The notes beneath the pieces were generated by a model. That model did no database searches and was not told the DNA's origin. It was given only the letters and a program-made list of their open reading frames with translations. Both the position numbers and the translations under genes were made by a program. From assembly GCA_023231475.1 (NCBI GenBank), contig JALJEE010001474.1, forward strand, positions 1-53,333: 53,333 nucleotides of DNA. The letters run 5' to 3'. Origin of the DNA: Seison nebaliae (Eukaryota). Below, in pieces: positions 1,244-52,138 of this stretch; position 1 is the stretch's first letter; each line of letters begins with the position of its first letter.

Positions 1244-2342
1244 TTAATAATTTTTTCGGTGAAATCGAATACCTGCGAACTTTAACCAATTTCCTAAGTT
1301 TGAAATAATTTCGTCCATCGGTTCGATCTCAAATTCTGGAATACTTTTGATAGAATCTAAAAGAATTAAATAAAAGTTATTCCTTAAAAAAAAATTCTAA
1401 CCAATAAAATTAAGAAAAATTCTTGTTTTCGTAAAATCTATATTGCCATTCTTCCCCGATATATTCATTAGACGACCAAATTTATCGGTAAATAATTCTT
1501 TCATTATATTATTGATTGTAACTTTCAAACATCCTTTTTTTCGGAAAGATATCATATATTTTGTCTATAATAAGCAGGAGTTAATTAGAGAAATATTAAA
1601 AAAGAACTCTAACAATGTTGGCGGAAAAATCTGCATCGTCCTCCAATCGATAATTGATTTTTTCAAATTCTTCTATTTTATTTATTGGAAAGTTTTTTCG
1701 TGTTGATGAGAAAGAAGAGTTAATCCCTGTGGTCATCATAAGTAAGTTTTCAATCCGCTCCAATTTCTTAGACATATTATTGAATTGATTTCGGAATTGA
1801 TTGCGTAAAGTTATTAACGGTGCATCCATAGTGTCGTTGATACGTCGACGTTTTAGATTATAATTGAATCCTATTGACCTCGGTGTTTTCATAGGTTCTT
1901 CTAAATTCTCATTTTCTATCTCCGATGTTGCGATTTCGTAGTCCATGTTTTCAATTACAGAATTGGTAATTTCGATAGGCGACTTCCACGTTTCTGAGTC
2001 TGGTGGTTCAATTGCTCTTTCTGGGATAATTTGAATGGAATTAGTAATGGAATTGATTCGATACTTAAGAAATAATTTTTTCAATTTATATGATGGTTCT
2101 GTCAATTCTTCTGTGTTCAATTGATCATTTGTGAAATTCTCTTTTAATAAGCATCTTTTTTGATTACTTTGAATTTCATCGTCTGTAATTGAGTCATTAA
2201 AATTTTTATCAAAATCTTCTATAATTTCTTCATTCAGACTATCTTCGTTATATTGTTCATTATTATCTTTACCATATTTCCAAGCAAGGTATGATGCCTC
2301 ACTATCAATTATCAATTTACGATTAGATCTTTTCCGACTCAT
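1244..2342 (-). CDS. DUF4806-like protein, 334 aa, 3 exons (2342-1614, 1564-1402, 1356-1244)
   Basis: Two GTT..AG introns (1565-1613, 1357-1401) extend ORF 1596..2363 in frame to ...FPINKIEEFEKINYRL...IMKELFTDKFGRLMNISGKNGNIDFTKTRIF...LGNWLKFAGIR. This is the coiled-coil + FP(I/L) + W-L-x-x-A pattern I associate with DUF4806 proteins. An alternative in-frame GTT donor lies at 1607. Confidence 0.6.
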
Positions 2343-2797
2343 TATTTTAATAAGTTTTAACAATTCTATTAAGAAACAAAAAAATTTTAAATATTAATAA
2401 CTTTTGTCTTATACTATTATATATTGTATCTATTAAAAAATAATAATTAATATAAAAAAGAGGTTTTTACATTTCGTTAACCAACTTCTCATATTTAGAT
2501 TTCTGGAAAATTTGCTCCACAAAAATATCTTGTATATATCATTTATTTGTTTTCTCTTTATGTAACGACAAATCAATTTTTTTGAGAAAAGAGCTAAAAT
2601 ATTACTTCTATGTATAATTTTGCGTTGTCATTATGGTTACTTTTCCAAAAAATAAACGTTACTGTAACTTCTTGTTTTTAAAGTACTATAACGTTACAAT
2701 CAGAATTTTTGTATGTTAGGGGAGGAACGACAAAAAAACTTAAATTATTTCCAGATATGTAATATCGATAAATATCGATATCTTTTATATCATATAA

Positions 2798-4052
2798 CAC
2801 TGTACCACAAAGAAAAAGTAATGCAAAAATGAAATCTGTTTCTAGATCGGAATTTTCCGTAGATTACAAATATACTAACCAATTTTCTTGGGAGGTCGCA
2901 GTTTTTTCAGAAAAACCAATTTTCTAATTTTTTTTTATATTAGGTTCAACCACTAATATTCAACCTATTTCATTTATTTTTTATGGAGATTATAGGAAAT
3001 TAAAAGTAGTTTAGGTAGTCGTAAATGAAAGATCATCTGAGTTTATAATAATGCTCCATATTTTCAATTGGAAGTGAAGAAAGTCAAAAAATTGGAAAAT
3101 TGGGATTGTTTTAAAGTTTAAACAGTTAAAATAAAATTTTTTAAAGACTGATTCATGATTTGGAAGGCACTGTTTGAAAGGCTGTAAAATTCTCTTCAAG
3201 ATGGCTTATAACTTTGATATATAAAAGTGCAAAATATTCCTTTTCTGCATGAAAATAAGAAATATATCTAATTTAATTTTTTCCAATTTTTTAAATTATT
3301 TTTTAAAGATGGAAAAATTTACGTAAAATAGCTAGAAGGAAAAAAATAGTGCAAAAAATAAAACTGTTCAGTGAAAATATTATAAGTATAAAAATGTTCT
3401 AGTAGTGCTGCTGCTTCTTCTATGTTTTTGGGTGCTTTCCCTTACAATAGACCATATATAGTCACTCAACATATTCTGATAATCTTTCTGAAAATATCTT
3501 GTTTCCATTATTTTGATGTCTTGGTGAAAACTTTCTCCATGTTCTTCGGAAACACTACACAAATTATTTGTAAAGAAATCTTTATGGTTGTACAAATAGT
3601 GCATTTTGATGGACTACCCTTTGATTTTACAACCAATTTTATGGAATTCTTCAATCATATCTTTGCATTCATTTCCACCCATATCTGTTCTTCTACTGAG
3701 GAACTTACATATTTAGTTTTATTATTTGTTAGTTAATACAGCTGTTAACTTATCCCATACATCTCTTTCCGGTAATGTCATTGTTTCCAAAAATTTTTTA
3801 TTGTCTCTCAGTTTATTAATTAGGGGACCTGTCAGAATATCATTTCTTACTTTTTGGTAAGATAATTTCGGAAAAAAAATTTTCAAAACGGTAAAACATT
3901 TACTTTTCTCCTAATGTTTTGATGAATTGTTTGGCTAATCCCAATTCGATGTGTAGCGTCGGAAGAATTATATCGGTAATATCAATGAGGGGTTCATTTT
4001 GAAAATTGAATTTTCCAATTTCAAAAGTTGTTCTTGTTTCCCAGATTACGTT
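2798..4052 (-). mobile_element. Decayed Chapaev3-like (CMC) DNA transposon, 3' part
   Basis: CACTG terminus at 2798 preceded by TAA (TWA-type target site), with the transposase remnant at 3380-4052. The other end was not found. Confidence 0.55.
3380..4052 (-). pseudogene. Transposase pseudogene, Chapaev3-like
   Basis: Minus-strand fragments in different frames: EPLIDITDIILPTLHIELGLAKQFIKTL*, CFTVLKIFFPKLSYQKVRNDILTGPLINKL..., and KMHYLYNHKDFFTNNLCSVSEEHGESFHQDIKIMETRY...MLSDYIWSI. They match the remembered family motifs LPPLHIKLGLMKQFVKAL, GPQIR and EHGERFHQDI, and carry frameshifts and stops. Confidence 0.8.
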
Positions 4053-4330
4053 GTACTGTGTCGTCTATCCCCTTGTATTATATCGTTTCGATGGTGGCTA
4101 ATGATTTCTTTTGTCGTCATATTGGATTCTTCCGAGGTTTTTCAATCTAAATATAACTGGATCCCATCTTAAAGTAGAAAATTAGCTATAGTTCCATAAT
4201 AATATGCATAATCAATAAATATAACGCCCATATGAAAATATAATGGTCGTATTTAAGAAATGGTAGTGATAATTTTAACATTTTTAATCCACAATTTTGG
4301 ATAAATTAACATACTTGGTAAAAAAATCTG

Positions 4331-4486
4331 GGTGACGTAATCACCGTTTTTAAGAACAAATGGTGACGAAATCACCGTTTTTAAGAACAAAAGGTGACGA
4401 AATCACCGTTAGAAAAGTCGACGAAATGTCCGAATTTGGAAAAACAAGGCAAGCAAATCGAAGGGTGACGAAATCACCGCGTACCC
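4331..4486. repeat. 31-bp tandem repeat with palindromic core, probably a transposon subterminal array
   Basis: GGTGACGWAATCACC at 4331, 4362 and 4393 (period 31, spacer GTTTTTAAGAACAAA), a fourth copy at 4464, a variant GACGAAATGTCC at 4420, and a CGTACCC end. Confidence 0.8.
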
Positions 4487-4698
4487 TACTAATGAAGGGG
4501 AAGAATGTATAAAGAAGAACAACAAAGCGTATGTAAAAGAACGGGATTTCCTATACATACATGTCATTAGAATTTGTTTTTCTTTTCTTTTGTCTCTACC
4601 GAACACTTCCTAATACATTAGAGAGAGCCAGAGGACAACCAGAATGCCCAGGTCGATTATCGGGTACAATTATCGATAGATTATCAGGAGAGTAATTA

Positions 4699-4982: not shown

Positions 4983-5457
4983 TATGTATGTATTTCAAAA
5001 TCGAACATATTTCATGACATGTTGATAATTTATGTGGCATTTACTTTAGGATTTCGATTATAGATTAATATAAAGCGCTTTTAACTACTCTTATCCAGTC
5101 ATTCAATTGTTGAAAGATTGAAAATCTTCTTTTATTCTCGTATCTCCGACTCGATTCTCTACCATCTCCATAGAAACAATCTCAATAAAAACATCGATCC
5201 ACAACAATAGCTAAACATAACTAAATGACTAAATGCTACATTAAATCTTGGTGAAAAAGAGAAATTGGAAGTTTGAAAAATTTTGAACAATAAGCACCAT
5301 TGTCCATTTGCCATATTTAACTTGTATTATATGATGTTAAGTATATGGTGGTAATATCTCGGGCAAAATTAATAAATCTGTTAAATCTATAAATTTCAAA
5401 AATATTTTTGTAGCACTGTCAGAGTTTTTACCATATCAAAATTTTGGGTGAATTGAG

Positions 5458-6317
5458 ATGTATTATTTGGATAAGAATAAATTGAGCAAAGTTGTTGATA
5501 AAAGATTAAAAGGAAAAAGGTTAAGAGAAGCAGATGATAAGGTTTGTCCTACTGAATCTTCTGTGTCTTTTGTTCAATTTCATTTCAGAGAAACTTATTT
5601 TTTTATCGATATGGTTCATACGTGATTGGTGGAACGACACTTCTCACTTCTCTTGTCATCAGACATGTTCATGCGAGATTGTTCATGGGAAAAGATTCAT
5701 TGATTCGGATAGCTCACTTTGGTTCAGTTGTCTTACTTCCCTCACTGGTCTCATATGAACTACATGAAAAATTAGTGAAGAAGAAATTATTGGAAGAATC
5801 ATTATTTTTGGTATCAGTCGATAAGTGGAAGATCGATAAATCGTTGATTCCCAATCTCTGTTCGACGTGTTATTCAATCAGATCGAATGTTTGTCAATTA
5901 ATGTCTTCAATTCTCCAACCATACATAATTTCAACTTTTCTGGTTATTTCATTTCCTCTCAACAATGAAATGAGATTAGATAATCAATCGCTCATTCAAA
6001 TCGTACGACAACGTTTGGGAATGGCATTTCTTCTCAATTCACAGAATTGTCGAGAATATTTATTCCGCAAATTGAGATTGAAAGATTATGATAATATGTG
6101 GAGTGTTCGTAAAATGAAGAGTTTATTAACAAAGAATGAATTAGATTTGTTGAAAATGTTAATGAAAGGAAGAAATAATAAATTGACGAGTGTTTCCACC
6201 ATCGTTTATTGTGGAATAATCATCTCTCTTCTAGTGAGTTCGATTGTGGTGAATGAAGAATTCAATTCGATTTTATCTCTTCTTCCCAAACAACAAATAA
6301 AAGAAAACGAAATATAA
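5458..6317 (+). CDS. TMEM126: TMEM126-family mitochondrial membrane protein, 270 aa, 2 exons (5458-5541, 5589-6317)
   Basis: Intron 5542-5588 (GTTTGT..CAG) joins an ATG exon in frame. RNLFFYRYGSYVIGG, several hydrophobic helices and CSTCYSIRS resemble TMEM126 RNLLENGSVYVG and CETCTITRS. Confidence 0.7.
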
Positions 6318-6363: not shown

Positions 6364-7455
6364 TTACAAATTTATTTTCCACTTTTCTACATAAGCCTCT
6401 CGAATTCTCGTCCTTTCTTCTTGTTCCTGAACTGATAACGATGAAAATGATGATGATGATAAAAAAGGAAAAATAAAACTTTTGTTATGATGGAAAGCAC
6501 ATTGTTGTCCACGGGGACAGAAGTTGTTCTCATGATCATGACACAATGTCGATTTGTAGACATCGGGATGAAATTGTTGTTCATGTCGAGTGTGTGCATA
6601 TTTACAATTGTCTTCTTTCGGACAAATCGTCGGATTCGACCAAACGTTATTCACTCGAACTTTACTACACGGTGTAGAAGAGTAGAAGAATTCGAACGGA
6701 TTCCTTCGACGATCATTCCGTTGATGATAATCGGAACAAGCAAATCCTTGTCGACATAAATGTGCAGATTTTGTGCAATCTTTCGTCTTGTAGAAACAAA
6801 CGATATGCATGGCATCATTCCATAAATTATTTTCATTCTGATATTTCTCATTGAGATATTGATAAATTATATATTGATCAAATTCCGCCATTTGCATTAA
6901 CATATCGATATGACGATAATTAACATCAGATGTTTTCAAATCTTTTATAAGTTCGAGAAGACGTTGAGAGACATTGAATGGAGCATGACATCGTCGACTG
7001 ATATCCAACTCATTTCCTGTCAACGTATCACAAGATGACGTGCTCTTCTCCATCTGAGACGATGAACAACGGAGAGATGAAAGAGAATGAGCATAAGAAC
7101 AATATTCTCCATAATTCGAACATGTTCCATCACTCAACGTTTCATAAGGACAAATAATAGTCTTGTAATTGAATGGATGAAATAAACGTTCACTGTCACC
7201 GAAATTCCGATGTAAATGATTACATTTATCTCCATTGAAACATTTGCCACTCTGCTCGTCATAATTCTCACAATAATATTTCGACGAATATAACAATTTT
7301 CCAACAACGCAAGGACGACGTCGGTGATTATCAAAATGATAATCAAAACATTTGTATGGTCGATGATTCATACAACGATGTTCGGAGAACTTCGAACATT
7401 GTTGAGTTCGGAATTGTTCAATTATCTTTTGAGAATCGTCAATCCTTTCATTCAT
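6364..7455 (-). CDS. UNK: Unkempt-family CCCH zinc-finger protein, zinc fingers only (363 aa, or 347 aa if 6432-6479 is spliced)
   Basis: FRTQQCSKFSEHRCMNHRPYKCFDYHFDNHRRRP, YKTKDC...LCRQGFACSDYHQRNDRRRNP and CKYAHTRHEQQFHPDVYKSTLC..CPRGQQCAFHH form the six-CCCH Unkempt array. Confidence 0.9.
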   Translation of the reverse strand: MNERIDDSQKIIEQFRTQQCSKFSEHRCMNHRPYKCFDYHFDNHRRRPCVVGKLLYSSKYYCENYDEQSGKCFNGDKCNHLHRNFGDSERLFHPFNYKTIICPYETLSDGTCSNYGEYCSYAHSLSSLRCSSSQMEKSTSSCDTLTGNELDISRRCHAPFNVSQRLLELIKDLKTSDVNYRHIDMLMQMAEFDQYIIYQYLNEKYQNENNLWNDAMHIVCFYKTKDCTKSAHLCRQGFACSDYHQRNDRRRNPFEFFYSSTPCSKVRVNNVWSNPTICPKEDNCKYAHTRHEQQFHPDVYKSTLCHDHENNFCPRGQQCAFHHNKSFIFPFLSSSSFSSLSVQEQEERTRIREAYVEKWKINL

Positions 7456-7618: not shown

Positions 7619-10473
7619 ATGAATATTATCATTTTCTGGATGATTATTCTTATTCAACAATTCTTGTATCCATGTTCTGGTGAGAGTAATAACGTAACAG
7701 AAATAAATTATGAATCATTAGAAATTCGAATTGAAAGTTCTCAAGTAATTCTCAGTTTTAATCAATATCAATTAATTAAAGATATTCATTGGAAGGCGTT
7801 CAAACTGATCAGTAAAGAACATACATCAAATATTTATGGGAAACAATTCAGTTAAATTAATTAATATTAGTCTGTTAGTTACTTTTTGAGGAATGTAGGT
7901 AAAGTAGTGAGAGAACTAAATAAATTCGAGTGGACGAATAAAGGAATCAGTATTCCATATGAAAGTAGTAATAAGAAGCATGCGACTATTTATCCAGTTC
8001 ACATTTGTTGTTTTGGATATAATGAAGATAAATTGAGAAAGTTATATAAAAATTTATTCAGTTTCCAAAGAAGAGAAACACTTCATCATATATTCGACGA
8101 GATCCATCAAATATCGAAGGGAACTGGTACACTTTCATATCAATTGGAATTGTGCCAATATACTGAACATGAAGTAGTGCAACATATTGAAGAGGAAGTG
8201 AAATATCGATTAAATCCCAGTTATCATAATCTCATTATTCGGATGGAAGTTTTTACAAAATATGAAGATGATCATTTCTCCTTATTAGCCATACGAGGTT
8301 CATATATAATATATATGAACTGAAATTGAAAAAATTAATTTCGTGAATTTTCCAGATTTTATCGATATGAGTTGGAGATTGACAGCCGGATACGGTTCGA
8401 TTCAATGGTCGATATTCGTTCTTTATAAACAATCAATTCTTCGAATTAAACAAGAAGTGAATCATCATTTCCAATATGATATCCAATGGTTGGGTAGTAG
8501 ACGGACCTTTTGTCATACCTTCTCAACAGAGAAACCATTCTTTATCGATGTCAATGGAATGGACAGATCCTTCTGCAACTATAATATGAGTTTTGTAACA
8601 GAAAAACAGATAGTCGATCCTGATATTCAACCATTAACCGTATTGACGTTTCTCGATATGGTTATGACGGAAAGTGGCGAATCGAAACTCAGTTCACATC
8701 ATCAAGCAGATTTTTTGGAAGACATTTATAGAAAAGTTACGTTTCTAATGGAGATTCCATAAGAAATACTTTATTTCGTTTTTAGTATCTTAGGAGAATG
8801 TTCTCAAAATCCAAACGAGATAATTCTCATAGTGAGAATTCAATGATTATGTCTTGGCATAAAGCCACCATACGTGTCTTGACACATGAAGTTTTCATCT
8901 AAATTTTTTTCTTTCTCTTTTCAGTTCGTTAGATACCTCCATTTAGCATCGAACAAAATTTAGGGAATGATATGTCAGCTTATTATGGGTATTATTTCGA
9001 AGCACTTGATATGGTCATGGCACAAATGGATTTATCGTATGAAGTAAGAAAAATCGTCGCAATTGGTGACGATATCGAACAATCATTACAAAATCAAATT
9101 AATATCGACGTTCTACATTTAATAAATTATGTTTTAATTCGAATAATTATTATATTTCATTAGGCGACCGATATCGTTGCTGCACCATTTCATCGACCGT
9201 CATATGCTGAGAAAGATATTAATTATAGTGTTCCCATCTTCTCTTATGGGAGTATTAGATATCTTTCCAAAAGCATCCAATACTTGCCACTCTGGCAAAA
9301 TATCATAGAAAGTTTCTTCCATTTTCTCTATATGAATTCTTCTAAATATTCTCATAAAAGTAATTGACATTCCTCTATTTTTAACGATATTTGTCGTTCT
9401 AATTCTATTGGTATGCCTTTACATCTTCCTCGAATATCAATCACCTTTCGGATTATTGAATCAAACAACGAAATTCTCTCAGAACCGTCTAAACTTTTCC
9501 ATTCTCCGTCGTGTTTTTAGTGATGTCTTCTTCCGATTTACAACGTTTATTGTTGGAGGAAGTAATACATTGCGACATACGATCGGCTACTCCTCCTTAG
9601 TACTTATGACAACTGTTTGGATATTCTTTTATATACTCATCATTTTAGCGATTGCCAAAATCATTGTGAATACGGTGAAACAACATTTACAAACATATTT
9701 GTTTGTACAATGGTCTGGATCGACTACAGGACGTCAGAATGATATTGTCATAATAAGTTTCTATTAATAACATATCAAATAATTTATATTTATATTGTAT
9801 AGATGGGAGTTATGCAGATAGGAACAAACGATCTGTAAGACTTATGAATGAAGCATTAATTAGTAGATGGAAGTCTTTACTTTTACAACCAGAATATTTA
9901 AGGCAAAAATTCACAGCCTATAATTATCCATTCTTTAATGATCTAAATGAAGGATTACGTCATGCTAGTTCATTAGAAGATGGAATACAAAAGGTTTTAG
10001 AGGAGGACGCAATATTGAAACATGAGGAGTATATTATGAGATATCATATCTTTAAACATGGCCTTCAGTGTAAGACAAAGATATACGGTCAACCGACAGG
10101 TAATCCATATTATGTCTTCATTATTAACCCGAAAACGCCATTTATTACAAAAATTTTAAGAGTGTTAAAATTCTCCTTTAAATTCTTCTTTGAATCAATT
10201 TCTAATAAATTTTTAAGTATCGAAGTAATGTATCATAATCAGGAATTCGAACGGTTAACCATGAAATGGTTTCCACCGTATGTTCGTGATAATAAATGTG
10301 AGTGGATGAACGAGTTGTATTCTCGCACGAAAATCCGTTTAGTATCCATTCAAATTATCTTTATCTCACTCGTCGTCGTGGTCGTTTTCATGATCATTAT
10401 CTGGCTAATTCAAATTTTACTGTATCGAGTGACATATCGAAATCGAATACAAAGTATCTCGTTAGTACATTAA
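7619..10473 (+). CDS. Divergent ionotropic (iGluR/IR-family) receptor, 817 aa, 9 exons (7619-7850, 7899-8297, 8356-8735, 8786-8890, 8933-9109, 9164-9311, 9361-9756, 9803-10163, 10218-10473)
   Basis: Signal-peptide-like N-terminus; S1-like IRVLTHE|IPPF...GYYFEALDMV and DIVAAPF...INYSVPIF; M1, re-entrant and M3 hydrophobic segments; S2-like YVFIINPKTPF...FERLTMKWF; then M4. Exons sum to 2454 nt in frame. The first acceptor is the least certain junction. Confidence 0.75.
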
Positions 10474-10650: not shown

Positions 10651-13600
10651 TTAATCTTCATCAGTTGAAATATATTGATCGGTGTATCGGTGTTGTGATT
10701 TGGAAGAATCGCGGAGATAATAATCTTTATGAGATTGATTTTTTTTATTTTTATTTTTTCTTTTCTGTTCTTTCTTCTTCTCTTTAAATAATCTCCGTTG
10801 ACTTCGAGTAATTCGAGCTGTTGGTCCACCACTCGATGAATCAGAAGAATTATTGCGACGTCTGTCATCATCCTCCGACGAGGAAGTAGATGAAGAAGAA
10901 GATGTGGAAGAAGTTGATGATGATGATGTCGATGATGATAATTGATGTCGTTTCTTCGAATCCTTCTTCTGTTTATTGTGTCGATTCTTCTGATTAGTAT
11001 TTTTATTCTTTGATAATTTAGATAATTTCTTTGAACGACGATCTGTCAATGATTTAGATGAAGATGATGAGGCAGATGAAGAAGATGATGATGACGATGA
11101 AGAGGAAGAAGAAGATGCACGATCAATTGTATCTTCATCGAAACTCGGTTTCTTCGGAGTATTTTTCTTCATTTTCAATTTTTTCGATGGATTCTCATTA
11201 AAATGTAATTTTTTCCTTTTCTTCGCCTTATCATCTTGTTCGTTACTCGTCTCACAGATTTTTGGTTGAGTTTGAAACTTCTTTTTCACCATATGACTTG
11301 GTCGTTCATTTCCGTTCGATGATTCGTCCGAATGAGAACTATCATCTAAAACTTTCGGTTTATTCATTTCATTCGAATCCATTTTAGCTGATGATGTTAT
11401 TAATGATGATGATGATGATTGTAATTCAGCTTTTTGAGACGGTGGCGATAATGGTGATGTTCGGATTGATGGTAATTCATTATGGATTGTCGATTGATTG
11501 AAACGATCGAAATGATCGAAATATTTATCAAAATTAAATTCAAAACGTTTAAAATTAGAATTCCTTTTTTTAACTTTATTCAAATGTTGTTGTTGTTGGT
11601 GGTGGTGATGGTGATGATGATGTTGTTGATGTTGTGTAGTATTGTTGGTGAGAGAGATGTTGTAGAAATTTCGGATGAAATCTGACGAAATCTTCTTGAG
11701 ACTTTCATCAAAATGTCTCATTTGGAAATGTTCCATTTTCTTCTCATGTCCATCGAATGAATTGAATATAAGTAGAAGATATAATCGTTTATGTTGATCT
11801 TTCCAAGCGATGGATGTGGTGGATTGTCGAAGAGGTGGTGGTCGTTTCTTCACATTTAACGAATTCGTCGAATTCCCTCCAGACGACATAGAAGAAGACG
11901 TCATTGTTGACGATTGTTTCATTTCTAATTTTTCATAAAGATCTTCCACATCACTATCTTCCAATTCAGGAATAACTTCATCTTTCATTTGTCGATATCG
12001 ATGATGACGTTCCTCTATCAAATTCATGGCGGCGAGAAACAATTCGATGTAGAAATCATTTTTTCTTATTTGAATCGATTCCGGTTCGAGCGACGCATAA
12101 TATGCACAACTCAACCAAGTCAATTCATCGAATTCATTCGACTCTTCAAACGATTTATTATTCGAACATCTTAATGACGATCGATCAGAAGTTGTTTGTG
12201 CATAATGATATTGAAATTGGGACGAATCACTAATCGATGATGCTGGTGATAATAATGAAATTTGTTTTCTATTCAATAAATAATTCTGTTTAATTTTCTC
12301 TTTTACTTCATTGATTTGATGTCGAATATCAGTTAAACGAATTTCCATATCTGTTTCATCAACTCCACCAGCCATTTTCACATGTTCAATAATCGGCATG
12401 AGAATCTTATAATGTAAAGGTGATTGACTGACATTAATGAGATCGTTAAGACTTCGTCGAATGAAAGCATAAGTCATCTTATCATCATTCTGTTCTACTA
12501 ATTTGTCGATATATCGTTCGATAATGGACGATCGTAATAATGTTTCACGAAGGAAAGAAAGAAGATGAGAGATGGAAGGAATGTTGAGTTGAATGAGTGA
12601 TTTGTCTGAAAGAAATTTAAAGAATTTCTTCAAAAATTTCACATAATCTCTCGGTTGTCTTCGATTTTCTACGGTTTTGAGTTGTTGAAAGAAATGTGGA
12701 GTAAGAATGAACGGTTGCTCCATCATACACGACGAATATGAGAGAATCGTTTCTTGGAGATATGATTCAAAATTATTTCCGAAATGTTCTTCATTCACTT
12801 CACAGAATGTACAGAAAAGCATTGAAGATGGAAAATAATTGGACATTTGACATGTGTCCATAGCGAATTTTAATGGGAGAATGACCGTCAAGAATTGTTG
12901 ACGAAGTGATTCCGATAAATTCTCACAAATTTCTTTCATCAAATCCGAATTCTTCCATTCCTTCTCTTTCTGAATGAAGTGGAGACGATGAAGGAATCGA
13001 GTGAATATTGTCAGATTATGATCAGATTGTTTCTCATTCGATTGTTTTGTTTGTGGATTATAGAAATAATCGACGATTCTCATCGAATGGAAATCTTTAA
13101 TAAAATTAATTTGATTGAACATGAGAACGGTGGAGAGGAAAGAAAGACGATTATAAAATAAGAGATTTGGTAGCCAACTCTTTCTCGTCTTTGGTGAATT
13201 GGATGAATTATTTTGATTATTCTGATGTTGTCTCAAACGACGACTAGTGTGACCACTTGATTTATTATCCTTCATGGAATTATTTCCTGTTGATTGATGA
13301 GGATCATGAATTGATGTAATAGTTGAACGAGAGAAGAGATGTTGGAAGAAGAAGAAAGAGAAAAGAAACGAAGCGACTTCATTTGGTCGATGAATTTTAA
13401 TTTTGATGAGGAAATCCATGAGAATTTCTTGAATTGAATTCATAACATCTGTCTGATTAGTAGTTTGTTTTGAAGATTGATCTTGTTCACAAAATTTTAT
13501 TTTCACTCCATCAATCATCAATAATAAATTCAATAATTCCTCCATTATCTCATCTTCATATTTCCCATTTTTCTTATTGAGAGTAAAATCGAATTTGAAC

Positions 13601-16600
13601 CGTTCAACAACATCATCGAATTGTGCATTTTGACAATTGATCAACATCAACAAGAAATGTAAAGATGGTGAATTAATTTGTTGATTTTTATTATTCTCAC
13701 AATTATTATCATCACTTGTCGTCGGTATTATAGGTGATGATGGAATTATATAGAAATGATGAAGGAAAGATAAAAGAAGATGAGTGAGACAACGTGACAT
13801 TGGAAGGAGATGAGATGTCTCAATATCAGTTGAATTAATGGAACATTTCAATGTGTAATCGATCACTCCAAATAATTGAGTCAACTGATTTAATGATGAT
13901 ACGAATAATTCTGGTGTGAGAATACTAAATTTATCTAATGAATAATTAGACAATTTTTTCAAATCTAAACGATTCGAACAATTATCGAGATCTTCTACAT
14001 TTCTCGTCGATTTCATTTCCTCACATAAATATTTTAGAAGGAAATTCGCATAGAAATCTCTTCCAATCGAAAATTTATTTTTGGATTTCTCTTCGTTCAA
14101 TCCATATTTCTCCTCACCACGTTGATGAATGGATATGTGGAAAATTCTCCATAATAATTCCTGTTGGGCGTGAGACCACATTCCTGAACAGACAAGAAGA
14201 TTCGTGACAACTTGACGAACATAAATGAAATAGTTTAACAAAAGAAAATACGTCGGAATCATTTTATCTTCTTCATCCTTTGGTTGATGAGTGAGTTGTT
14301 CCATTCCTCTTTCTTTATCATTCGATAAGATAAATAATCGATGAACATAATGAATGAATTGACCGACTAATTTATCATAATTAAATTGTGAAAACTCGAA
14401 ATTGGTGAGAGAGGCAACTGATAGAAATCGTGAAGATTTCATCAATTTCTTAAGAAATCTTCTCAATCCAATCCACAATTCTTCATCATTATCATTCTTG
14501 ATAGATTCGTAGAGTATTCGATTATTCGTTTGAAGATGATGTCGATAAACGGAATATGAAATGATGAAATTCAACGTCTTCCTACCTTTCATCTCTTCCA
14601 AACACCAAACACGACATTGTCGATTATGTAAACGTTCGAGTAAAGAGGAAAATGAAACGGATTGTTTACAAATCCTCAAACAATGATACCAGAGAATTGG
14701 ATGATCATTCAACGTTATTGTGTGACGAATACTTGATAGAAATGATTTTGATATGTAGAGAAAAGATTTTTCTTCTTCTTTTTTCGAATAGAATCGTTTC
14801 AATGTTTCATTGAATATCATTCTCTCATGATTGTTAGAAGAGAACAATTGGAGAATATCATCAACATCTAATCGTTCTTCAACAAAATATGATAATTGTT
14901 CATACAAATTGAGATTGATGGGAGTATTGTGAAGAGCTTGTGAGAAGAGAAGGAATGGAATACATTCAAATATCACATCCGAATCACTTATAGAAGCTAA
15001 TGATAAATCATTAATTAGAGAGAATAATAATCGTTCACTCTTTTTCGATTCATGATTGAAAATGAATGAAAGACAATTCTCAATTTTCATGTGTGTCGAT
15101 TTATTGTCATTAAAAAAATCATCATTCGAACACTTTCCTTTTTTTGAACGAATATCAACTCCTAATTCTTCATCAACATCAATTCTCCCATTTAAAATTC
15201 TCTTCTCATCATCATCATAAGCATCATCATCATCGTCAGAGAATTGATGATATTTCTGATCATTATCGAAACGTAAATCTAATTTGTTATATTGAATAAT
15301 TGATGATGAATCTCTATAAATGGAACAGATATCATGATAAATGTTGATACCACAAGATAGAAGTGATGTTAATAAATTCTCTTGACGTTTCGATAGTTGT
15401 CGATTGCCCAACATCCATTTCCTTCTTAACTTTGAAGATAAATTCCTTGTCAAATTGACAATGAAGAAAAGAAGAATATATCCAAATTTTTCATGACGCT
15501 TCGCTATCTTTCCGAACATGACGAGCAACAATCGATGAAAACCGGAAAAATATTTCTGTTGATCACTCTCCTTATCCCAAGTCTCAGCGACTCGTTCTCT
15601 CAAAAAAGAGAGAGGAGAATTTTCAAATAAAATGGAAAATATATCATTAAAATTGTTGTTGATACAACTCAAATAAGTCAGTTCGAATTGGAAACGAAGG
15701 AAGAAAACGAGAGAGAAATGTTCGAATTCTTTTCCATTCCGATAATTGTTCATTTGAAGTGATTGACGAATTGGAACATAATTTCTTTCAAACCATTTCA
15801 ATTGAGTTGATAAACACCAGCGATAATATGCGGAGAATGGTTGAAGATTCAATTCGGGATAAATTAAGACAGTTAACAAATCGACGAGTAATTTTAATTG
15901 ATTCTTATTAATCCGATGAATGGAGAGAACTTTCTCTTGCATGAATTGAGGATCAAAAATACTTGACAATTTCCTCCAAATTTCTTCTTGAATGTTCACT
16001 TCAAATTTCTCTTTTTTCTCACTTTTCTTCTCTAATGCATATGACATATTCTGATGATGTTTATTAACGAGATCGATCAGATATAAAACATTCTCTTTCA
16101 ATTCTCCTTCTACATTAATCGATTTTGAAAATTCATTTCGAATCCGATGAAAGAAATCACCAGTATTCACATCAATCTCATATTGTTCTAGACGAAGTAA
16201 CGACGAAAGATAATTCAATTCATTCCTAATTCTCAAGGAATAATCAACTTTGTAGAAGAATGTGGATAACAATTGAAAAACTGGAGATTTTCTTTCACTT
16301 ATCGTCCGTTTCCTCTTTACATGTACTGGAGGCGTTTGAGATGATGTTAATGATTGTTTGTCTATTCTCAATTTTATATCAGTTGAACTTTTTATATTTT
16401 CCATAATTTTCGTTTGATCTTCTGTCGATTTTAACGATTTTTTTATCGTTCCTTCAAACACTGTTTCCAACGATTTATGACTAGATGCTTTCCTATTCTT
16501 TTTCTCCTCCAATTTATTCGTTTTCGTCAATACATGCATTCGATTTAATACTGATATTGTATTATCGAGATCACTACCAATTTCCATTGTCGATGTTGTT

Positions 16601-33450: not shown

Positions 33451-35799
33451 TTATATTCCATTCTTCTTCAACATCCGATCATCATAATCATGGAATTTGG
33501 ATGGCATTATGGATTTCCAACTAAATTTCTTTCTATCAATCGTTTGTTGCATCCAACTCTCTTTCAACAATTGAACGACATTTAATCGAAGATGAGGTTC
33601 GGGACGCAACATCAAAAATAATAATCGTTTCAAATCCACTGATGGTTCTCGAGCATCTTTCGGATATTTCAATCGAGCATTCACCACTTCTTTAGCGGAC
33701 GCAAATGGATTCTGTCCGAATATCAACGTATATAACGTCACACCAAGAGACCAGATATCTAATTTAGTTCCGTCATATCTAAATTGAAAAATAATAAAAT
33801 TATTGAATGGAAAAATAGAAAAAATTTAACTTTCTTCCTTGAAGTACTTCAGGTGAACAATATTCCGCTGTTCCACAAAACGAATGGAAACAACAATGGA
33901 AATCGATTCGGGAATGTTTCGTCAGATTTTCAGGGAATGTTGGATGTTGTCGAGTTTGCATCGATATTCCTGATGGAGGAGGAATAAATGAAGCCGAACC
34001 AAAATCGATGAGTTTCACTTGGAAATTACGATTGACGATAATATTCTCATCTTTAATATCTCGATGAACGATATTCACTTTCAAATGCATATACAACAAC
34101 GCCATGGCTAATTGATGGAATATGTAAGCGGCTAATGATTCTGTAATTTTTGGTCCTCGCTCAATAAATTCAAAAAGATCCATTCCATCTCCATGTCGAA
34201 CCATAACGATATCATAACCTTCTTTCGTTTCAATCAAATCAATCATTTTTACAATATTTTCGTTATGAAGTCGACGAAGTACTGCAATTTCTAATGGTTC
34301 TTTTGTCGCACGGAAATCGATAGTGGCGTAATAATTATCTGAATCGACTTCATGAAACATTTTCTTATTGAAATGTTTTTTCCGTTCATTGATGACTTGA
34401 TGGACGGATTCCTTCTCTTCTTTATTCGCATATTGAGATTGACGATAATCGAACCATCCTTGAGTTGCTACACGTTTTCTAGCGAATGATTTGATGATAT
34501 AAATCTGATTATCAGAAATAGATGTTCGTTTCGCCATATACACTTCCCCAAATGCTCCTTTTCCGATGCGTCGTAATTTCTTATAATTATTTTGTTTGGG
34601 AGGTAATTTCTGTCCCGTCTCCACTGTCAACTCATACGATGATGGATATACTAATTTGGGGAATTTTGGATGGTTATCTTTTTCTGGTTTCGTTTCGAAG
34701 ATGATTTCATTCTCCTCATCTTTATTCTGTTCGGTGACTGGTACACTGACAGCAGAAGAAGGAGAAAGTATATTATCTTCATCGTCATCATCAGAATTAA
34801 TGTAAAATTTTGCAGTATTCTCACCATCGACTACTGGTGATGATTTAGATGAATTTTTAGGATCATAATTCGGAGAGAATTTGATGGTATTAGTAGACAT
34901 AACAGGAGATGTTTGAATATTCAATTTATCCATCTCTTCAATTGGTGTGGTGGAAGTGACAGCAACTGATGTTATCATTTTGGATGGACTTGCTGAATAT
35001 ATTTTATCGTCGATTGATGATTTGACAATTATTTCCGTTTGTTCTTCGATGGGAGAAGTGTTTTGTAAAATTGGTATTGTTCCCATAATCATTTTCTCTT
35101 TGGCAACTTGAAGATATTTCTGATGTTGTTCTGATGTTCCATCATCGAGTTGATTCATCAACAATGTCGCATCACCTGGATGAACATCGTTTACATCAAC
35201 TGCACTATCAACTTCTGAATTTGGTGTAAAAGCCGGAGTGTGAAGTAATTGACTACCATCACGAATTACTTCGGTTGTTTCATCTGATGACAATTGTTTA
35301 TCATTCGATATAGGAATAATATTAGGAGAAATTTTCGATTTAACTACTGTTTCTGATGGCATAGAATTGGGAGAAATGATTTTGACAGGTGAATTCTTGA
35401 ATTTTGAGGACGGTTGAGTGGGAGATGATGATGTATTGATATTCAATTCATCAATCTCCTTCACCACATACAACGATGGAGAATGTTGAATTGGTTGATC
35501 GGAATCTTTAATATTCTTCTGTTTCTTTTGTTGTTGATCGAGAGAATTATCATCATTCAATAAACTTGAATCATCATATAATGCACTATCGTTACTACGT
35601 AATATTTCTTTCGCTTCAATGATCGTACCATTGTGTGGTGATGGAGTTGGAGTTGAATTTTTATTTGATGAACTGAAAGAATTGATCCATTCGTTCGACC
35701 AATTATCAATCGCTTTCAAAATATGAAAAGTGGTGGAATTAAGATCAATCAATAAATTATCTTCATCATCTTCTTCCTCAATCTTCGAATCCTTAAATG

Positions 35800-35835
<36 letters not shown>

Positions 35836-38674
35836 GATGATGATGATAAGTTTTTGTTAATTTATCTATACGTTTTTTCTTTTTCTTCAATTTCTGATTT
35901 TCATGAAGACCATTTGTCATCCCATTGTCGTCATGACCACTGTCATGATTATTCTGATTGTGTTGATGGAAGACGTGCATCATATAAGTGCTAAAAGAAG
36001 CCATATCTTCATGATTATTGAATAAATCACGAAAATGAAATGATTGTTGTGATGTCAATTGACCATTCTTAAGGAACAAGCCCTTCTTCACATCATCATC
36101 ATCAACAACATCATCATCATCATCATCATCGTCTTCTATTTCGTCTTTCTCTTTTCTCACCGATCCACTCTCAGATGGAGGTGTTTTGTCGAGTGTTGTG
36201 GGAGTGCGACAGATAGTATTCTTACTGCTAATCGGAGTCTGATTATCTAATTCGAAATGATGTCCATAATGTTGACGTTCTTCGTCATTCGAATTCAACA
36301 ATTTAATGTTGGAAGATAATTGAGAATCCAAAATATTATCATCAACTTCCTCGTAGTCGTTGATGACTAACATACCTCCCTTCACTAAATGATCCAATAC
36401 GACACCTAATAGATGCATTCGAACTGTACTTTTCTGTCTTTCAATCTCTTGAGATCTCATCGATGATAATGAAACGAAAGAATCAGGATGATTCTTCTTG
36501 TTTAAACTCTTCTGTTTTAATTCCTCCAAATTAACATTCGACTCTGCATATTTTCTCTCATTCGTCTCTTGAAGACGTTTGTAGGGAAGTGGTTGTTGTT
36601 GTGGTTGTTGTTGTTGATGATGAGAATGAGAATTCTTCTGAACATTATGTGAAGTGGTTTGTGGATTTCGATGTAACGGTTTCTTCATCAACTGAGAGAG
36701 ATTCCTTAATAATCCATGACCATTCTTATGGAGAATGGAAGTGGAAGAAGAAGACGATTGAATCTTCGAATGTTTAAATTGAGAATAATCTGAATTAATT
36801 GAAATCTCATGAAGATTTCCATGGTGTTCATAATTTTTCGTTTTTCCATTATTCTTCTTCATTTTCTGATCATCCTTCAATGGTTTCTTCTCATCACCAA
36901 TTCCATTTTCATCAACTTTGATGAATTGAGATAACGTCTTCTTTATTGCCACTTTCAAATCGTCGATATTCTCCATCGAATTCGATGCATGAGGAAATGC
37001 GGTGACACTTTCACATTTTTGGGAGAATGTCGAAATGTTGTTGGATTTCTCACTTTTCGATTCAACTTTTGTGATTTGTTGTTGATGGGATGAATTGGTC
37101 ATCATTAAATTGTCATGTACACTACTCGATGTCGCCGTCAATTCCATTGGATGAGTTGTGGATGTAGTGGTGGATGTTGTGTTAGTTGTGATGGTAGTAG
37201 AATTGAAAGAATCATTCGACGAATCTAAATGATAATTTCCTACCATTGAATTAGATGTATTAAAATTCGGTTTTGTCGTCGCTATATAATGAGTCGATAA
37301 GGCGGTTGTTGTTGTCGAATTATTTGATGGTAAATTGTCAGAGGCTGAAGACATTGATAAGACTGATGTGGTCGCCGGAATGAAATGGAAATTTTCGAAG
37401 AATTTTTGTTTTGCCTCTTTACTTCGAAACTTAAATTCCAAATGATGATTATGATGATAATTATGATTTGAACATGATATCACTGACGATTTTCCCTGAT
37501 GTCGTAAATGATTATTATCGAAATGAGCTAACGACGAACGTTTCACATCATCAATTTTGAGAGATTTATTCGATTTATTATGAGATATGTTCGGCAAATG
37601 TGGATGATGTTGATGATGATACGAAACAATTTTATTGATCATTGATGTTATTCCACCATGATGATTATTTGTTTGATTCGTCATCATCTTATTGTGATGA
37701 TCGTCTAATGTCTTTGAATTCACTTCAACAGATTGATGATGTTGTTGTTGGTGTTGGTGTTGTTTAAGTGATTGATTATTTGAATTCGATCCAATTGACT
37801 TCTCCAAATGTTGTTGTTGTTGTTGTTGTTGTTGTTGTGGTGGTGGTAATGGATTGTGAGTGGTTTGATTATTACTGTTATTATTCTGATGATGATTACA
37901 TGGATGTTGTGATTGTGGTCCATGCTGTTGTTGTTGATGATGATGATTATGATGATTATGATGATTGTGGTGATCATTATGATGAAAGAGTCGTTGAAAT
38001 CCATTAAATCCTCGAACAAATTTAATGATTCCATGTCGATTATGATGATGATATGGATGATCGTCGATATGAGCGTCAGCTTCATGAAAATCATCAGAAT
38101 CATAAGCAATCAAAGATTTACTATTTCTTGTCATTAATCCAGATGCGACGGACGAATTCGTCGAAGATTGTTTATTCTTCATATCTTTCTCGTTCGAATT
38201 CTTCTTCGAATTGAATTTATTTTTAAATTGATTTTGCTGTTTAATCGGTTTCAATATTTTTGAATCGTTCGATTTAGATGAAGACGATGGAGGAGCATTA
38301 CCATTCTGTGTGGTGGACGAACATTGATGAATTGATGATTTATCGAAAAGATTCGTCGTCGTAACAATTCCAACTGACGATTGGCGATCTTTTTCATTCG
38401 AAGTGATCTTCTTTTGTGATGGTACACCATTTCGTATGACGTCATCAGACTCGTATGACATCGTATCACACTTCTCTTTGTCAAAGAAGCGATCATCTCT
38501 ACGATTGGGTAGTGATAAGACGTCGATTTTTCTCTCAATCATCGTTCTGACCAATTGTGTTGTTGTCATTGTGGGAGTTGAGGAATCATTAATTTCTTCT
38601 TGATTCTCCTCTACTTCGTCTTCAAAAAGGAAAAAAAATCAAACCAAATTAGTCATAGATAGGGAACTTGTCAT
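33451..38674 (-). CDS. PASK: PASK-like Ser/Thr kinase with a long low-complexity N-terminus, about 1707 aa, exons 38674-38668, 38619-33831, 33778-33451
   Basis: IGKGAFGEV, VMVRHGDGMDLFEFIE, LAAYIFHQL, HRDIKDENII, KLIDFGSA, FCGTAEYCSPEVLQG and DIWSLGVTLYTLIFGQNPF match the PASK kinase domain. Intron 33779-33830 restores subdomain IX. The 7-nt first exon and intron 38620-38667 are inferred. Confidence 0.85.
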
Positions 38675-46254: not shown

Positions 46255-48711
46255 ATGACTGGTCACAAGAAAGCCGTTAACGCTCATTCATCGACGGCGA
46301 ATCGAAATAGTGAGATGGTAACTCACAATTTACCAGGTTTAATTAATCATAATAATCAAATAGTCGAATTTAATTCTGTCAGTTCTTAAATTTTTGATGA
46401 ATGCTCAGATGCAACATGGATTGCTCCATAAAGATTTTGAGCGTTATCGTCGTTACTGCAACCGACGATTGTTGAGAATAAGGAAATCAATCCATCAAAT
46501 CAATTCGAAAGGAAGAAAATTTCAGAAAGCTACATTGCCGATCAGTGGACATTCAATTAACGATGAACGATATCTTCAAATTCCTTTAATTTGTGCCGAT
46601 CGAGCATGGGCTTATGCTCAACAATTGTTAAGTGAACAAGACAAGAATAAGAGAAGTCGCCATCATTTTATGAGACGGATGCGGAAAGCCATCTACTATT
46701 GTGACATGATGGAGAAGTTGATGAGTAGTGGTAAATCAAATGAGAACATTCATGATTCCGACACTTCCAACGATCAAGATATGTCGACTAATGACCCTAC
46801 TGAGAATGATATCGATGAGTCAATGTCTGACAATTCGACGGAAATGGTAGAAGAAGATGATGATGATGATGATGATGAAATTCCTGAAATTACTAAAAGA
46901 GAAATCAAAAAAATTCAATTTGGAGATCGATATTCAGCTCGAACTAAATTGGAGATTCGTGCCTATTCTTTATGGATGCATGCATTCTATGCATTCTATC
47001 GTGAGGATTGGGCAAAATCAAAAAATCATTTTCACAATTCATTGTTTATTTCATTGTCATATCTTGTTCATCAACGTTTGTTCATTTCAGAATTATCTAT
47101 CAGAATTTAAGAGAATCTTTCGTACATGTCGATAATGAACGAGAGTTATACGATCAAAAATTGAAAGATATTCGAATTTACATGAGATATTGTCAATATA
47201 AAGAGACTGGTGATCAGGAATCCATCGACGTATTAAAAGAACAGAAAAGTGAAGAATTGAGTCAACAGAATGCATTGGCTAATGAGACTATGGTCGTTAT
47301 CAATCAGTTGTTGGTGGAAGCGAAAGAAGATCAAAAGAAAACGACAGATCAATTCAATTGGTTCAGTATCATATTGATGATTTCGAACGAGAAACAACGT
47401 CAATGGCTCAGACAACGGAATATGTTGGAAGAAGATCTTCAATTGAATGTCGAAGATGATTCTCGTCAATATCTGAATTTAATAGATAAACATTTAGTTT
47501 CGTTAACGGAAATCTCACAATATATTCGTGATGATTTGAGAAAAGAGAAAGTTTTTGAGAAATATTTAGACATTTATCATTCATTTAATCATTTTTAGAT
47601 GTCGGATCAAATGGAAGATTTATATCGTTTATCTCCAAACGAAATGAAACCAAAATTATTATTCTTACTTTGTCTCATGCAAAATCGTCTCATTCTGCAA
47701 AGTAGAAAGAATATTTTTCTTATTCGAAATTATGAAGAAGAAAATAAAGAAATTTTATCAGTCAGTTTGTCGTTTCTATTTCATTATCTATTTTAATTAA
47801 TCTTATTAGAAATTGGTAAATTGAAATATAAATCCCAAATATTTGTGAATCTTTTCGATAAGATTATTCAGGGTAGTATGGAATTATTGAAAGTGAATAA
47901 TTCGAATGAAGATATCCAATTCTTCAGTCAAATGATGGAAATTCGTCTGAATCTTTCACGTATTCGAAGAATTTATTATATCGCACTCTTTTACTTTTAT
48001 GGTGATAATTTCGAACGTTGTCTTTCACTAGTGGAATATGGTTCGAATAAACTGGAGAAATTTGTAAAGTTGAATTCGATTGAAAATCTCCTTCCAATTG
48101 TGAAGAAATATTTGGAAATATCTGTCGACTTAAAATTCCATTTTCTCACTTTCATTCGATGTGAATTGGATGAAATTCTTCAAGCGAATACTTCTGTTCG
48201 TCAGATTCGTTTGGATTTCCAACATCTTACTGCAATGGTACGAACTTCTAAATTCACTCAACGAACAACGAAGTTGTTAGAGATGTCTGCTAATCGAGAA
48301 CAATTCGATAATGAATTTACGAAGAAATATTTCGAAGAGAAATCAAATAAAGTTTTCTTTATTATTTTACAATGAAATTGTTTCACTAAATGAAATTTAA
48401 TTCTTATAAAGGAATTGGAACATCGTATGAATGTTTGGTGCGATTGTTCTACATTCAAAAATCTTAATCAGATGTCTGTTACGGTTAATCAAATAATGAA
48501 TGATGATAAATTAAAAATCGAGGAATTATTACCGAACATTCTCGACGTGAATTTGGAGATGGAACCGTTGCCCGCACTTCCAACATTCTACGACTTAGCA
48601 CAAGGTCACATTGAAATGCCGAATCTTCAAGATAAAATCAAATCGAAAGATACTTCTTATGCGAGTAATGTCGGCGATTTGGTCAAACGTTTCCTTTGGT
48701 TTGGCAAATGA
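46255..48711 (+). CDS. SRP68: Signal recognition particle subunit SRP68, 736 aa, 6 exons (46255-46336, 46383-47043, 47091-47550, 47599-47764, 47810-48351, 48412-48711)
   Basis: AQMQHGLLHKDFERYRRYCNRRLLRIRK, RYLQIPLICADRAWAYAQQL, ARTKLEIRAY, MRYCQY, EPLPALPTFYDLA and a terminal FLWFGK. Exons sum to 2211 nt in frame. Confidence 0.95.
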
Positions 48712-49290
48712 TTAATTCATATTAAATTATTAAAAATATTTATTTTCTCTCAATAAAATTATTCATTCTATCTGAATTATATTACGTATCATATGTTATA
48801 TATTATACAATATATAATCATTTATTTTTACTAAAAAACCAAATTTTGTTAAGTAATATTAGAGTAAAGTATTAGAGGTATTCCTAAAAATTAGTAGGTA
48901 AGAGAATAATAAACAAATTTTAAATAATATCAAAATTGTTTTTGTTTTCAAATAATTCCTAACGTGATTTTACATAAGATAATTCAACAAATAAATTTGG
49001 ACTTTGGGATTATTAATTAAAAATTAAGTTAAAGTTTTTCCCTTCATTTATCAATTGCCCTACAGTATAAGTAAAAGAAGTATAATAAAAAAAAATTGTA
49101 TGAAGTTGTTTTTATGTATGGATGATATTGTGGAAGACCAATATAATATATATATATATAAATATATAATAATGAATGGTATCTTTAGAAATAGTTACCA
49201 CCGTAATTCGATTGTAACTACATTATTTTCTATGAATTTGTCAAAAATAAAAGAAGTTTGTTTTTAGAAAACATTTAAGGAGAAAAGAGT

Positions 49291-51041
49291 TTAATAAGAT
49301 GTATCTTTTTGAGTTTGAGGTTCCAACATGTTTACTTTCTCTAAAACAACAGATTTGTCTCTTTTTTGTCGGTTTGAGTAAATGATGAATGAAATGCAAA
49401 CGTATGCCATAATAACGAAGAGCATGATAATTGTGGTAAAAGGAAATAGTTGTTGTTGTTTTTCTTCATCAAAAAATGGGAATTTAATGATAGGTTTTAA
49501 TGCAAACACTTCAATTCCTGCTAGTGTCCGTAACAGTATACCCATACAAAGACTGATGACATAAGAAATTTTGTGCGTATATTTAAAATATATGACGATG
49601 ATTAATTGAGGAAAGATTGAAATGTAGACGACATCGGCTGCTAATATCCAGAGTGAGTAGATCGATTGCACTAAATATGCCAAGATTGTAGCAATGATTG
49701 CTGCAACAAATGTGCTTATGCGAGTGACTATTGTGAGTTCTCTGGTGGAACACTGATGATTCAGATCAAATTTAGAATATTCATAAGAACAATAACATTT
49801 TTTCGTATGATTATATTCCAAACATTATAAGAGAACATGGAAGCAGAAGAAAGAATTGCTGAATCTGCACTAGACATAACCGCTGCTGTTATTGCCCCTA
49901 GACCACACCAACCAACTGCTTTAGGTGTTAAAGTTTTTAATGTGATAGATAATATATCAGTTGGTAAGATTTCAATTTCCGTCCTATTTCCATAAATCAT
50001 TTGCCAATCTATAAAGAATGAGATAAAGGAAAGAAATGTAAATTATATTCACAAAATATTCCGAGTAACCGACATTTCGAGCAACCATGCCTATCGTCAA
50101 TGATGGTATTCCCATGGTGGTGCAGAAGACAGCCGCAGCAAAAGATAATGGTATAATTCTAGAGAAATTTTTGATGGCTAAAATACGTTGGAAATACGAC
50201 TACATTGTAATTAATGAAAAATAATGAAACTAATTAATAAAAACTTGCCAAGGTATTCCACCTAATATGAGTAATAAGAATTGATCAACATATCTACCAA
50301 TATCTTTTGGTTCTATTTTACCCCAATAAATTTCAAAAGATGCCGTCGTATTATTTGATGACAGTCTATTATTAACAGCTGGATGATTGATCATAAACGG
50401 TATGGCTAATACTAAACCAAAAAGAATGCATAGAAGTTGTAAAACATCCGTATATGCTACAGCGAATAGACCACCGAAAAATGTGTAAATTACAACTAAG
50501 GAAGCCGATCCGATTATACAAAAGAGTAAAGATATTCCAGATATCGTATGTAATGTATGTCCTAAAACTGCGAGAATTGCCGAACACCAAAATATCTCAC
50601 CACATATCGCTGGCAACAAAACTAGAGCTCCCAATTTTTTCCCATATGCTATTTGGAAGGGATCAATCATTGTCGTATATTTGCTGTCTCTCATTCTTTT
50701 CGCAAATAAATATCCCCCAATTACTAACGACATCGGATAGGAGATGATGGCTTGTACCCATAATAATCCATAACTATATGCAGCTTCAGCAATACCATTT
50801 ACATATCCACCACCAACCCATGTAGCTATGAAGGACAATAAACTGTGAATATTCAGCAGTACAAATTCCAACCTGTCATTGTAAAAATACTCACAATTAT
50901 GCCCAACTCTCGATTAGCTAACATAAGATCTTTTTGTTTTTTATGCCGTTGTTTGTACCAGCTGATGATACAGCCGAAAACCATTATACCCACCATAAAA
51001 ATGATGACCACCGACAATCCGATAATGACATCAATATCCAT
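49291..51041 (-). CDS. SLC5A7: High-affinity choline transporter (sodium:solute symporter), 517 aa, 5 exons (51041-50873, 50825-50245, 50199-50070, 50008-49797, 49752-49291)
   Basis: FTMTATWVGGGYVNG, YTTMIDPFQ, VAYTDVLQL, GGIPWQSYFQR, AAVMSSADSAILS and YISIFPQL. Exons sum to 1554 nt in frame. Confidence 0.93.
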
Positions 51042-51682
51042 TTTCTATTCCGATTCAAATTGGTTGTAGGAATATAATTATTTTTCTTTTAATCTCTCAC
51101 AAAGTGATAAGTCTCCCGAGGAGAAGGATGAGGAAATATTTGTTTACTTATTTTCTCGTAAGTTTATTTTTTTTGAAGTAGAGTGAAGTTTATTATATCG
51201 TCAAAATTGATAAGAGATTATGGATATATTCATATTTGCTTTAAAGTTTAGTGGGAAGCTCAAATACATGTCGACTCATTACATCTTCAACAACACATTC
51301 TTATCATATGTGACTCGTTTACTAATTCCCAATAAAAATATGATTAAATAATAAAAAATAAACTTTCTAATTGACGAAAAGATTGTTACGATAAAATATT
51401 CCAAACTTTATCAATCGACATCTTTCTCGATGGGGCACATAATTACCTCTCACTCTTTGACGATATTTCCTCCCATTCGATATTGTTTGACATATCTCTC
51501 TCAATTCATCCTTCATAACAAAACACATTTTATTATTAACGATAATATTTGTGATAACAGATTATTCAATTTTTCTCGTAAAGATGAGATAAAAATAAGA
51601 TTTTTTAAAAACTGCTTCGCGAGAGAAGAAAATATTTCAAATAAATTAATTAAATTAAATGTAGAATATTAGATAATTCAAT

Positions 51683-52138
51683 TTAAGGTGTATTCATTCG
51701 TTTCCTACTTAATCCGTCCATGTTGTTTTTCAGTAGAATTGTATAGGCCTTAGCGGAAGAAAGTGAGTGAAAGGAGAGAAATTTATAATAATGATATGGA
51801 ACCATAGTAAATCGATTGAGATCTTTCGACATGACAACGGTGGAGATTCTTTTTTTCGCCATTTTCGCTCTTAATAGACATCGATTCTCATTCGAAGATG
51901 TCGTTGGTTGTTTTCCATCTTTGCTAATTGGCGTTTTCCTTCCATCGTCTAATGGATAAAATTTATCAGCAAATAAAAGTTCGCTAAATCTAACATTGCT
52001 TCATTGTCAAATAAACGGAATGTTCTTTCTTTGATTGTTTAAATAAATTCATCAACTCTAAGAGAAACTATTTAAAATTAACAAGAATGAAGATCTCTAA
52101 ACATTTCCACCAACCTGCTCATTATTCATTAAAGTCAT
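51683..52138 (-). CDS. SRP14: Signal recognition particle subunit SRP14, 102 aa, 4 exons (52138-52115, 52067-51995, 51948-51803, 51748-51683); not in the ORF track
   Basis: Spliced translation MTLMNNEQFLLELMNLFKQSKKEHSVYLTMKQYDGRKTPISKDGKQPTTSSNENRCLLRAKMAKKRISTVVMSKDLNRFTMAYTILLKNNMDGLSRKRMNTP contains the SRP14 motifs EQFL, SVY..K.YDGR, CLLRA, KISTVV and NMDGL. Confidence 0.95.

Follow-up and report, generated by a model that had tools for sequence, protein, structure and literature searches.

All 38 introns called in the window, by which we mean the whole stretch of 53,333 nucleotides of DNA analysed here from Seison nebaliae, a small marine relative of the rotifers, begin with GTT on the coding strand. 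The introns are distributed over 11 genes on both strands (table 1) and were inferred from DNA, reading frames and protein homology, without RNA junctions. When all 38 coordinates were re-read in the window, they agreed with the sequence-only reading that had first listed them: all 38 donors have T at +3 and none has a purine there (GTR), every intron is 42-61 nt long and closes as GT..AG, and removal of the introns leaves no internal stop in any of the 11 gene models. The 95% lower bound on the share of GTT is 0.92 for all 38 introns and 0.87 for the 21 introns placed without recourse to +3. At the level of sequence, the pattern is thus confirmed as real and well beyond chance within the window, and a near-obligatory +3 U is supported there. 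A GTT rule extending genome-wide in the Seison nebaliae lineage is likely, and so is the notion that intron starts in this species are read by a changed rule in the splicing machinery. The likeliest cause would be a U1 snRNA with A at position 6, a reading to which we assign a probability of roughly one in two.

Table 1. Genes of the window, with the donors (first intron position) called in each.
Feature	Positions	Strand	Introns	Donors	Remarks
Gene without family name	1244..2342	-	2	1613 or 1607 (both GTT), 1401	both introns needed for frame
TMEM126-like gene	5458..6317	+	1	5542	47 nt; weak Pfam match
Unkempt-like gene	6364..7455	-	1 possible	6479	48 nt; in frame, skippable
817-aa membrane protein gene	7619..10473	+	8	7851, 8298, 8736, 8891, 9110, 9312, 9757, 10164	
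Gene without family name	25944..26877	+	2	26008, 26660	
PIN4	29971..30371	+	1	30169	44 nt; exons meet exactly at residues 52/53 of PDB homologue
CD36/LIMP-2 family gene	30443..32329	+	9	30712, 30912, 31165, 31303, 31401, 31517, 31683, 31801, 32037	all GTT
PASK-like kinase	33451..38674	-	2	38667, 33830	at 33830 exons meet exactly at 3dls residues 204/205
SRP68	46255..48711	+	5	46337, 47044, 47551, 47765, 48352	
SLC5A7	49291..51041	-	4	50872, 50244, 50069, 49796	
SRP14	51683..52129	-	3	52114, 51994, 51802	latter two fixed on PDB homologues
tRNA-Ala(AGC)	52459-52533	-			

The 817-aa membrane protein has a signal-like start and hydrophobic segments and gave no family match in a Pfam search; by eye, it resembles a divergent ionotropic receptor. 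The exon of the PASK-like gene at 33831-38619 (minus strand) comprises about 1600 codons rich in His/Gln runs and, compared with the kinase domain of 3dls, contains an insert that falls between residues 180 and 185. On the minus strand at 10651-19656, one uninterrupted frame of about 3000 aa, presumably far longer than the usual INTS3, carries an INTS3 N-terminal domain and is intronless amid intron-rich neighbours. Two convergent intronless genes (20115-21590, plus strand; 21923-23179, minus strand) have similar C-termini, and the second shows a weak histidine-phosphatase match with an RHG motif that seems altered by eye. Just 5' of the ATG at 23702 there is a 49-nt AT-rich GTAG..TAAG stretch (23639-23687, plus strand), which, on appearance alone, might be an intron of the 5' UTR that does not begin with GTT. 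No snRNA genes were found in the window.

Deposited protein models P0001, P0121 and P0122 give 19 of 19 called donors in SLC5A7, PIN4, CD36 and SRP68, but they come from a trained predictor and are not independent evidence; junctions were therefore ranked without a donor model. Profiles were built from non-self homologues (83 of 119 for SLC5A7, 88 of 149 for SRP68 and 50 of 119 for the CD36 family), and for one intron at a time, the others being held fixed, every open-frame GT..AG pair within 45 nt was ranked with the HMM, the candidate lists being confined to GT/GC..AG pairs. The called GTT came first in 18 of 18 introns (9/9 in SLC5A7 and SRP68 together, 9/9 in CD36), a non-GTT rival being present for ten of them; with free ends, most of the 18 had their best placement on the called pair or next to it. 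Four further junctions (PIN4 30169, PASK 33830, SRP14 51802 and SRP14 51994) abut exactly on PDB homologues. Together with 17 of the 18 profile-ranked introns, one near tie having been left out, they make up the 21 introns placed without +3. The sequence-only reading, which counted more than 20 junctions as fixed by frame and protein motifs, slightly overstated the number fixed by frame.

As to the deposited proteins themselves, SNEBB_008982 (P0001), labelled Seison nebaliae by NCBI, is identical to the SLC5A7 exon of the window, and P0121, with the same label, matches the PIN4/CD36 region. P0121 fuses PIN4 with the CD36-family gene (window 29971-32329) through a spurious 290-nt intron at 30291; PIN4 is complete with an end of its own (stop at 30371). 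This spurious intron likewise begins with GTT.

The three profile genes apart, 20 introns remain, among them the four PDB-fixed ones; a composition score that ignored positions +1 to +6 chose GTT in 19 of these and the donor as called in 17. A crude and noisy ab initio parse blind to +3 proposed 50 introns, 33 of them GTT, and recovered 20 of the 38 called donors. Its 17 non-GTT proposals comprise four antisense to real genes, six in already open frames, four that bypass natural stops and three that rival called donors; none of the 17 is needed to keep a frame.

About six of the 38 calls are uncertain. In SRP68, a GTA rival at 46318 is nearly tied with the called GTT at 46337 (345.3 vs 346.1 bits), and 48352 is the sole open pair, fixed by frame only and ranked 1058 of 1448 once the ends are left free. 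On composition, a GTG rival at 26005 scores better than 26008, a GTC at 8876 is nearly tied with 8891, and the weakly placed donor of SRP14 at 52114 is not settled. The stretches at 6479 and 10164 are in frame and stop-free, with no homology support, and may not be introns; 10164 can be skipped altogether, and the assertion that at 10162/10164 the frame survives with GTT alone was wrong.

Four SLC5A7 loci of other animals, obtained from a metagenome scan, served as controls for the same homology ranking, and 13 of their gaps were examined (those of locus L002 in part). The donors were 11 GTA, one GTC and one GTG, so that GTT accounts for 0 of 13 vs 18 of 18 in the window (Fisher p=5e-9). Locus L001, with 33% GC and GTA at 3/3 donors, is probably from a rotifer relative, its best protein match being Brachionus. 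Three SLC5A7 introns of the window (50244, 50069 and 49796) have their place and phase in common with L001 or L002 (after GIPWQ, in the D of DW and after RKN), and the donors of L001/L002 at these positions are GTG or GTA; the introns are therefore old, with the third base converted. The comparison supports the view that, where intron positions are shared, +3 U is a derived state with respect to other animals, and what had been described as an obligatory +3 U is better put as near-obligatory in the window and derived at these positions. The shared positions and phases also bear on the idea that introners, insertions of recent date derived from transposons, gave rise to the introns and by coincidence begin with GTT. 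Their uniform length and start would suit such an origin, but similarity among the 38 is no higher than among shuffled sequences (top score 30; shuffled maxima mean 31), and, given the three positions common to other animals, we find the idea hardly credible.

A more prosaic explanation would be that the pattern is local or overstated, owing to reader selection, predictor bias or T-rich introns, in a genome that has mixed donors. The junctions do come from one window and from DNA alone, some six of them have rivals or are possibly no introns, and the recovery by the crude parse was low. T follows GT in 1875 of 4579 GT dinucleotides window-wide and in 23 of 40 inside the 38 introns, whose composition is 77% AT and 7% G. 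The chance for 21 GTT introns placed without +3 nevertheless ranges from 2e-7 (at the T share of introns) to 9e-6 (if the base rate is set as generously as possible). A makes up 32% of intron interiors, yet is found at +3 in 0 of 38. Since, moreover, no non-GTT proposal of the parse is needed for frame and the equally AT-rich L001 has GTA donors, we consider this explanation quite improbable.

The sequencing runs over the window behave as DNA, with introns covered in runs X1, X2 and X4 without spliced joints, which says nothing on expression. Low-depth contigs about 86-89% identical lie beneath the main ones at 46394-46674, 47217-47476 and 31585-31804 (runs X1, X2 and X5) and represent a second diverged lineage or haplotype. 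Two low-depth divergent contigs over CD36 reach 9 and 4 bases into the introns at 31683 and 31801. Among the rows listed of a published transcript-to-genome table (PMC8351084, file 2), no match was found to the exon/intron length signatures of SLC5A7, SRP68, CD36 and SRP14. The same rows contain 36 distinct short gaps with a median of 49 nt, 81% of them within 42-61 nt, in agreement with the intron lengths of the window; the table records 32 of the 36 as deletions and not as introns, a share for which there is no control set. These deletion-style gaps are a weak hint of a poor fit to the ordinary donor model. The behaviour of aligners at ill-fitting donors underlies this reading.

Outside +3, a few donor positions are weakly enriched. 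The sequence-only reading had noted G at +5 in only 10 of 38 donors; the count stands, but it exceeds the 6.7% of G in intron interiors (p=0.0002), and -1 G (13/38) and -2 A (23/38) show weak enrichment as well. Its description of +4 and +6 as variable is borne out, both being at background without enrichment of +4U/+6U; there are 21 different hexamers in the 38 introns, GTTTGT occurs in two donors, and +3 C is absent. The letters on the exon side agree with the canonical U1 register (44 vs 26.4 expected, p=0.0002) and also with pairing to the U5 loop (p=0.008), and at the positions of the U6 ACAGA box donor letters are at chance. At the acceptor, -3 is T in 22, C in 10 and A in 6 introns, and the pyrimidine tract is little above the T-rich background: the 3' splice signal is likewise low in information. 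YTRAY is present in 22 of 38 introns at scattered distances (no null was computed), no branch-point position being prominent. The inferred introns are most likely short U2-type GT..AG introns. U12-type introns carry the donor motif RTATCCTT, and this class was rejected for the present introns, whose donors, all GTT and variable from +4 on, are unlike it.

The same letters speak to whether a canonical U1 might pair one base out of step, in a shifted or bulged register in which U+3 would face A7 of U1; such registers are known in human donors (PMC4856993, accessible text). The combined bulge score is indeed above shuffles (p=0.006), but it stems from the exon side, which is common to the canonical register. 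The intron letters of the shifted or bulged register (+6 G, +7 U) do not exceed chance (76 vs 73.9, p=0.41), and neither do the shifted exon letters (-2 C, -1 A; p=0.46); +6 G occurs in only 2 of 38 donors, whereas +5 G is enriched. We therefore regard out-of-step pairing as improbable.

Animals show hardly any variation in the 5' end of U1 or in the GTR donor. Pairing to the canonical U1 end is stronger for 33 GTA/GTG decoys close by (-3.0 kcal/mol) than for the true donors (-2.5 kcal/mol); if +3 faces an A, the order flips (decoys -2.5 vs true donors -3.3 kcal/mol), partly by construction. When true donors are set against 88 nearby GT decoys, 34 of them GTT, separation is equally poor with either U1 end (AUC 0.62), and length and composition must carry much of the splice information. 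Under the preferred reading, position 6 of U1, where the usual pseudouridine would take A or G and so give GTR, would face donor +3 with an A that takes only U. A two-letter rule would thereby give way to a one-letter rule that is about as strict, with no shift of the register. G+1, U+2 and U+3 would pair with the changed U1 as a continuous helix, ancestral introns would have been converted as U1 changed, and the remaining splice information would come from intron definition, that is, from tight length and the AT-rich, G-poor composition. In favour of A at U1 position 6 are the 18/18 motif-blind rankings and the four PDB-fixed junctions with GTT, set against none in the controls, together with the exon-side fit to the canonical register, the reversed pairing energies and the precedent of Entamoeba; the absence of +3 C and of +4U/+6U enrichment counts against reading by an ordinary U6 box. 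Against it stand the equal AUC for both U1 ends, the exon signal that fits the U5 loop too, the restriction to DNA of a single window and the fact that changed donors often arise without a change of U1, though such cases mainly concern +4.

The main alternative, possible if less likely, is that U1 is canonical and that +3 U is set by a protein (U1C, LUC7, PRP8 or SNRNP27K) or a changed U6 box, the U-pseudouridine contact being tolerated at the U1 step. According to the portions of the literature at hand, donor shifts without snRNA change are commoner, and in yeasts they track METTL16/SNRNP27K (PMC10581693); U-pseudouridine contacts function in human donors, as shown at +4 (PMC4856993); and non-canonical splicing in tunicates is tied to U2AF and m6A changes (PMC13326754). 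Moreover, +4 and +6 are without signal in the window, so the U6-side reading would have changed too. However, the published protein links concern +4, not +3, the published case of +3U, that of Entamoeba, has a changed U1 (bioRxiv 10.1101/2022.06.08.495308, accessible part), and a tolerant protein would, we infer, more simply relax +3 than fix one base. We give about an even chance to a GUU three-letter donor rule that is genome-wide in an animal lineage, with U1 position 6 (or a new +3 reader) changed and ancestral introns kept and converted.

If true, donor/U1 co-evolution would be seen here for the first time in an animal, and for the first time anywhere with +3 as the sole fixed position. 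Old introns moved from a purine to U at +3 would constitute a natural experiment on what reads this position and on how thousands of sites could shift in step with a trans-acting reader, in a genome that retains its introns and for which selective loss of introns explains little. No report of GTT-dominated donors in this or any other animal was found in the literature searched, most subscription journals and bioRxiv supplements lying outside its scope. The words 'GTT', 'splicing' and 'snRNA' are absent from the main text and supplement 1 of the Seison nebaliae genome paper, parts which contain no splice-site analysis. GTR is treated as the donor norm from yeasts to mammals in the text available of PMC9869432, and, as far as the accessible descriptions go, miniprot penalises GTT donors by 8 points relative to GTR and minimap2 favours GTR, so that genomes with GTT donors are prone to junction errors.

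The closest known case is Entamoeba, in which, according to the accessible part of the report by Roy & Bowser (bioRxiv 10.1101/2022.06.08.495308), 97-98.5% of donors are GUUUGN (88-90% GUUUGU), with U1 ACAAAC and an ordinary U6. A near-invariant +3 U in GT..AG introns is common to both systems, but in Entamoeba, an amoeba with few introns, the hexamer is strict and the branch points are constrained, whereas the window comes from an animal and has only +3 fixed, with 21 hexamers and +4/+6 free. Changed donors without U1 change are described for yeasts, Giardia, Thecamonas and Micromonas (accessible parts of bioRxiv 10.1101/2022.06.08.495308 and PMC10581693). In Saccharomycotina, +4 A/U switches are linked to METTL16 and SNRNP27K, with U1 and U6 invariant (eLife, PMC10581693, in the portion available); these resemble the present case as a lineage-wide change of a donor position, and differ in that the position is +4. 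The human donors with shifted or bulged U1 pairing, as described in the available text of PMC4856993, share U at +3, but they form a minority class in which the downstream motif is displaced, and no such displacement is seen in the window. The tunicate Fritillaria borealis is an animal whose splice signals have changed throughout the genome, as is likely for Seison nebaliae, yet in the accessible account (PMC13326754) 95% of its introns escape GT/AG, whereas the introns of the window keep GT..AG and add a third base to the rule.
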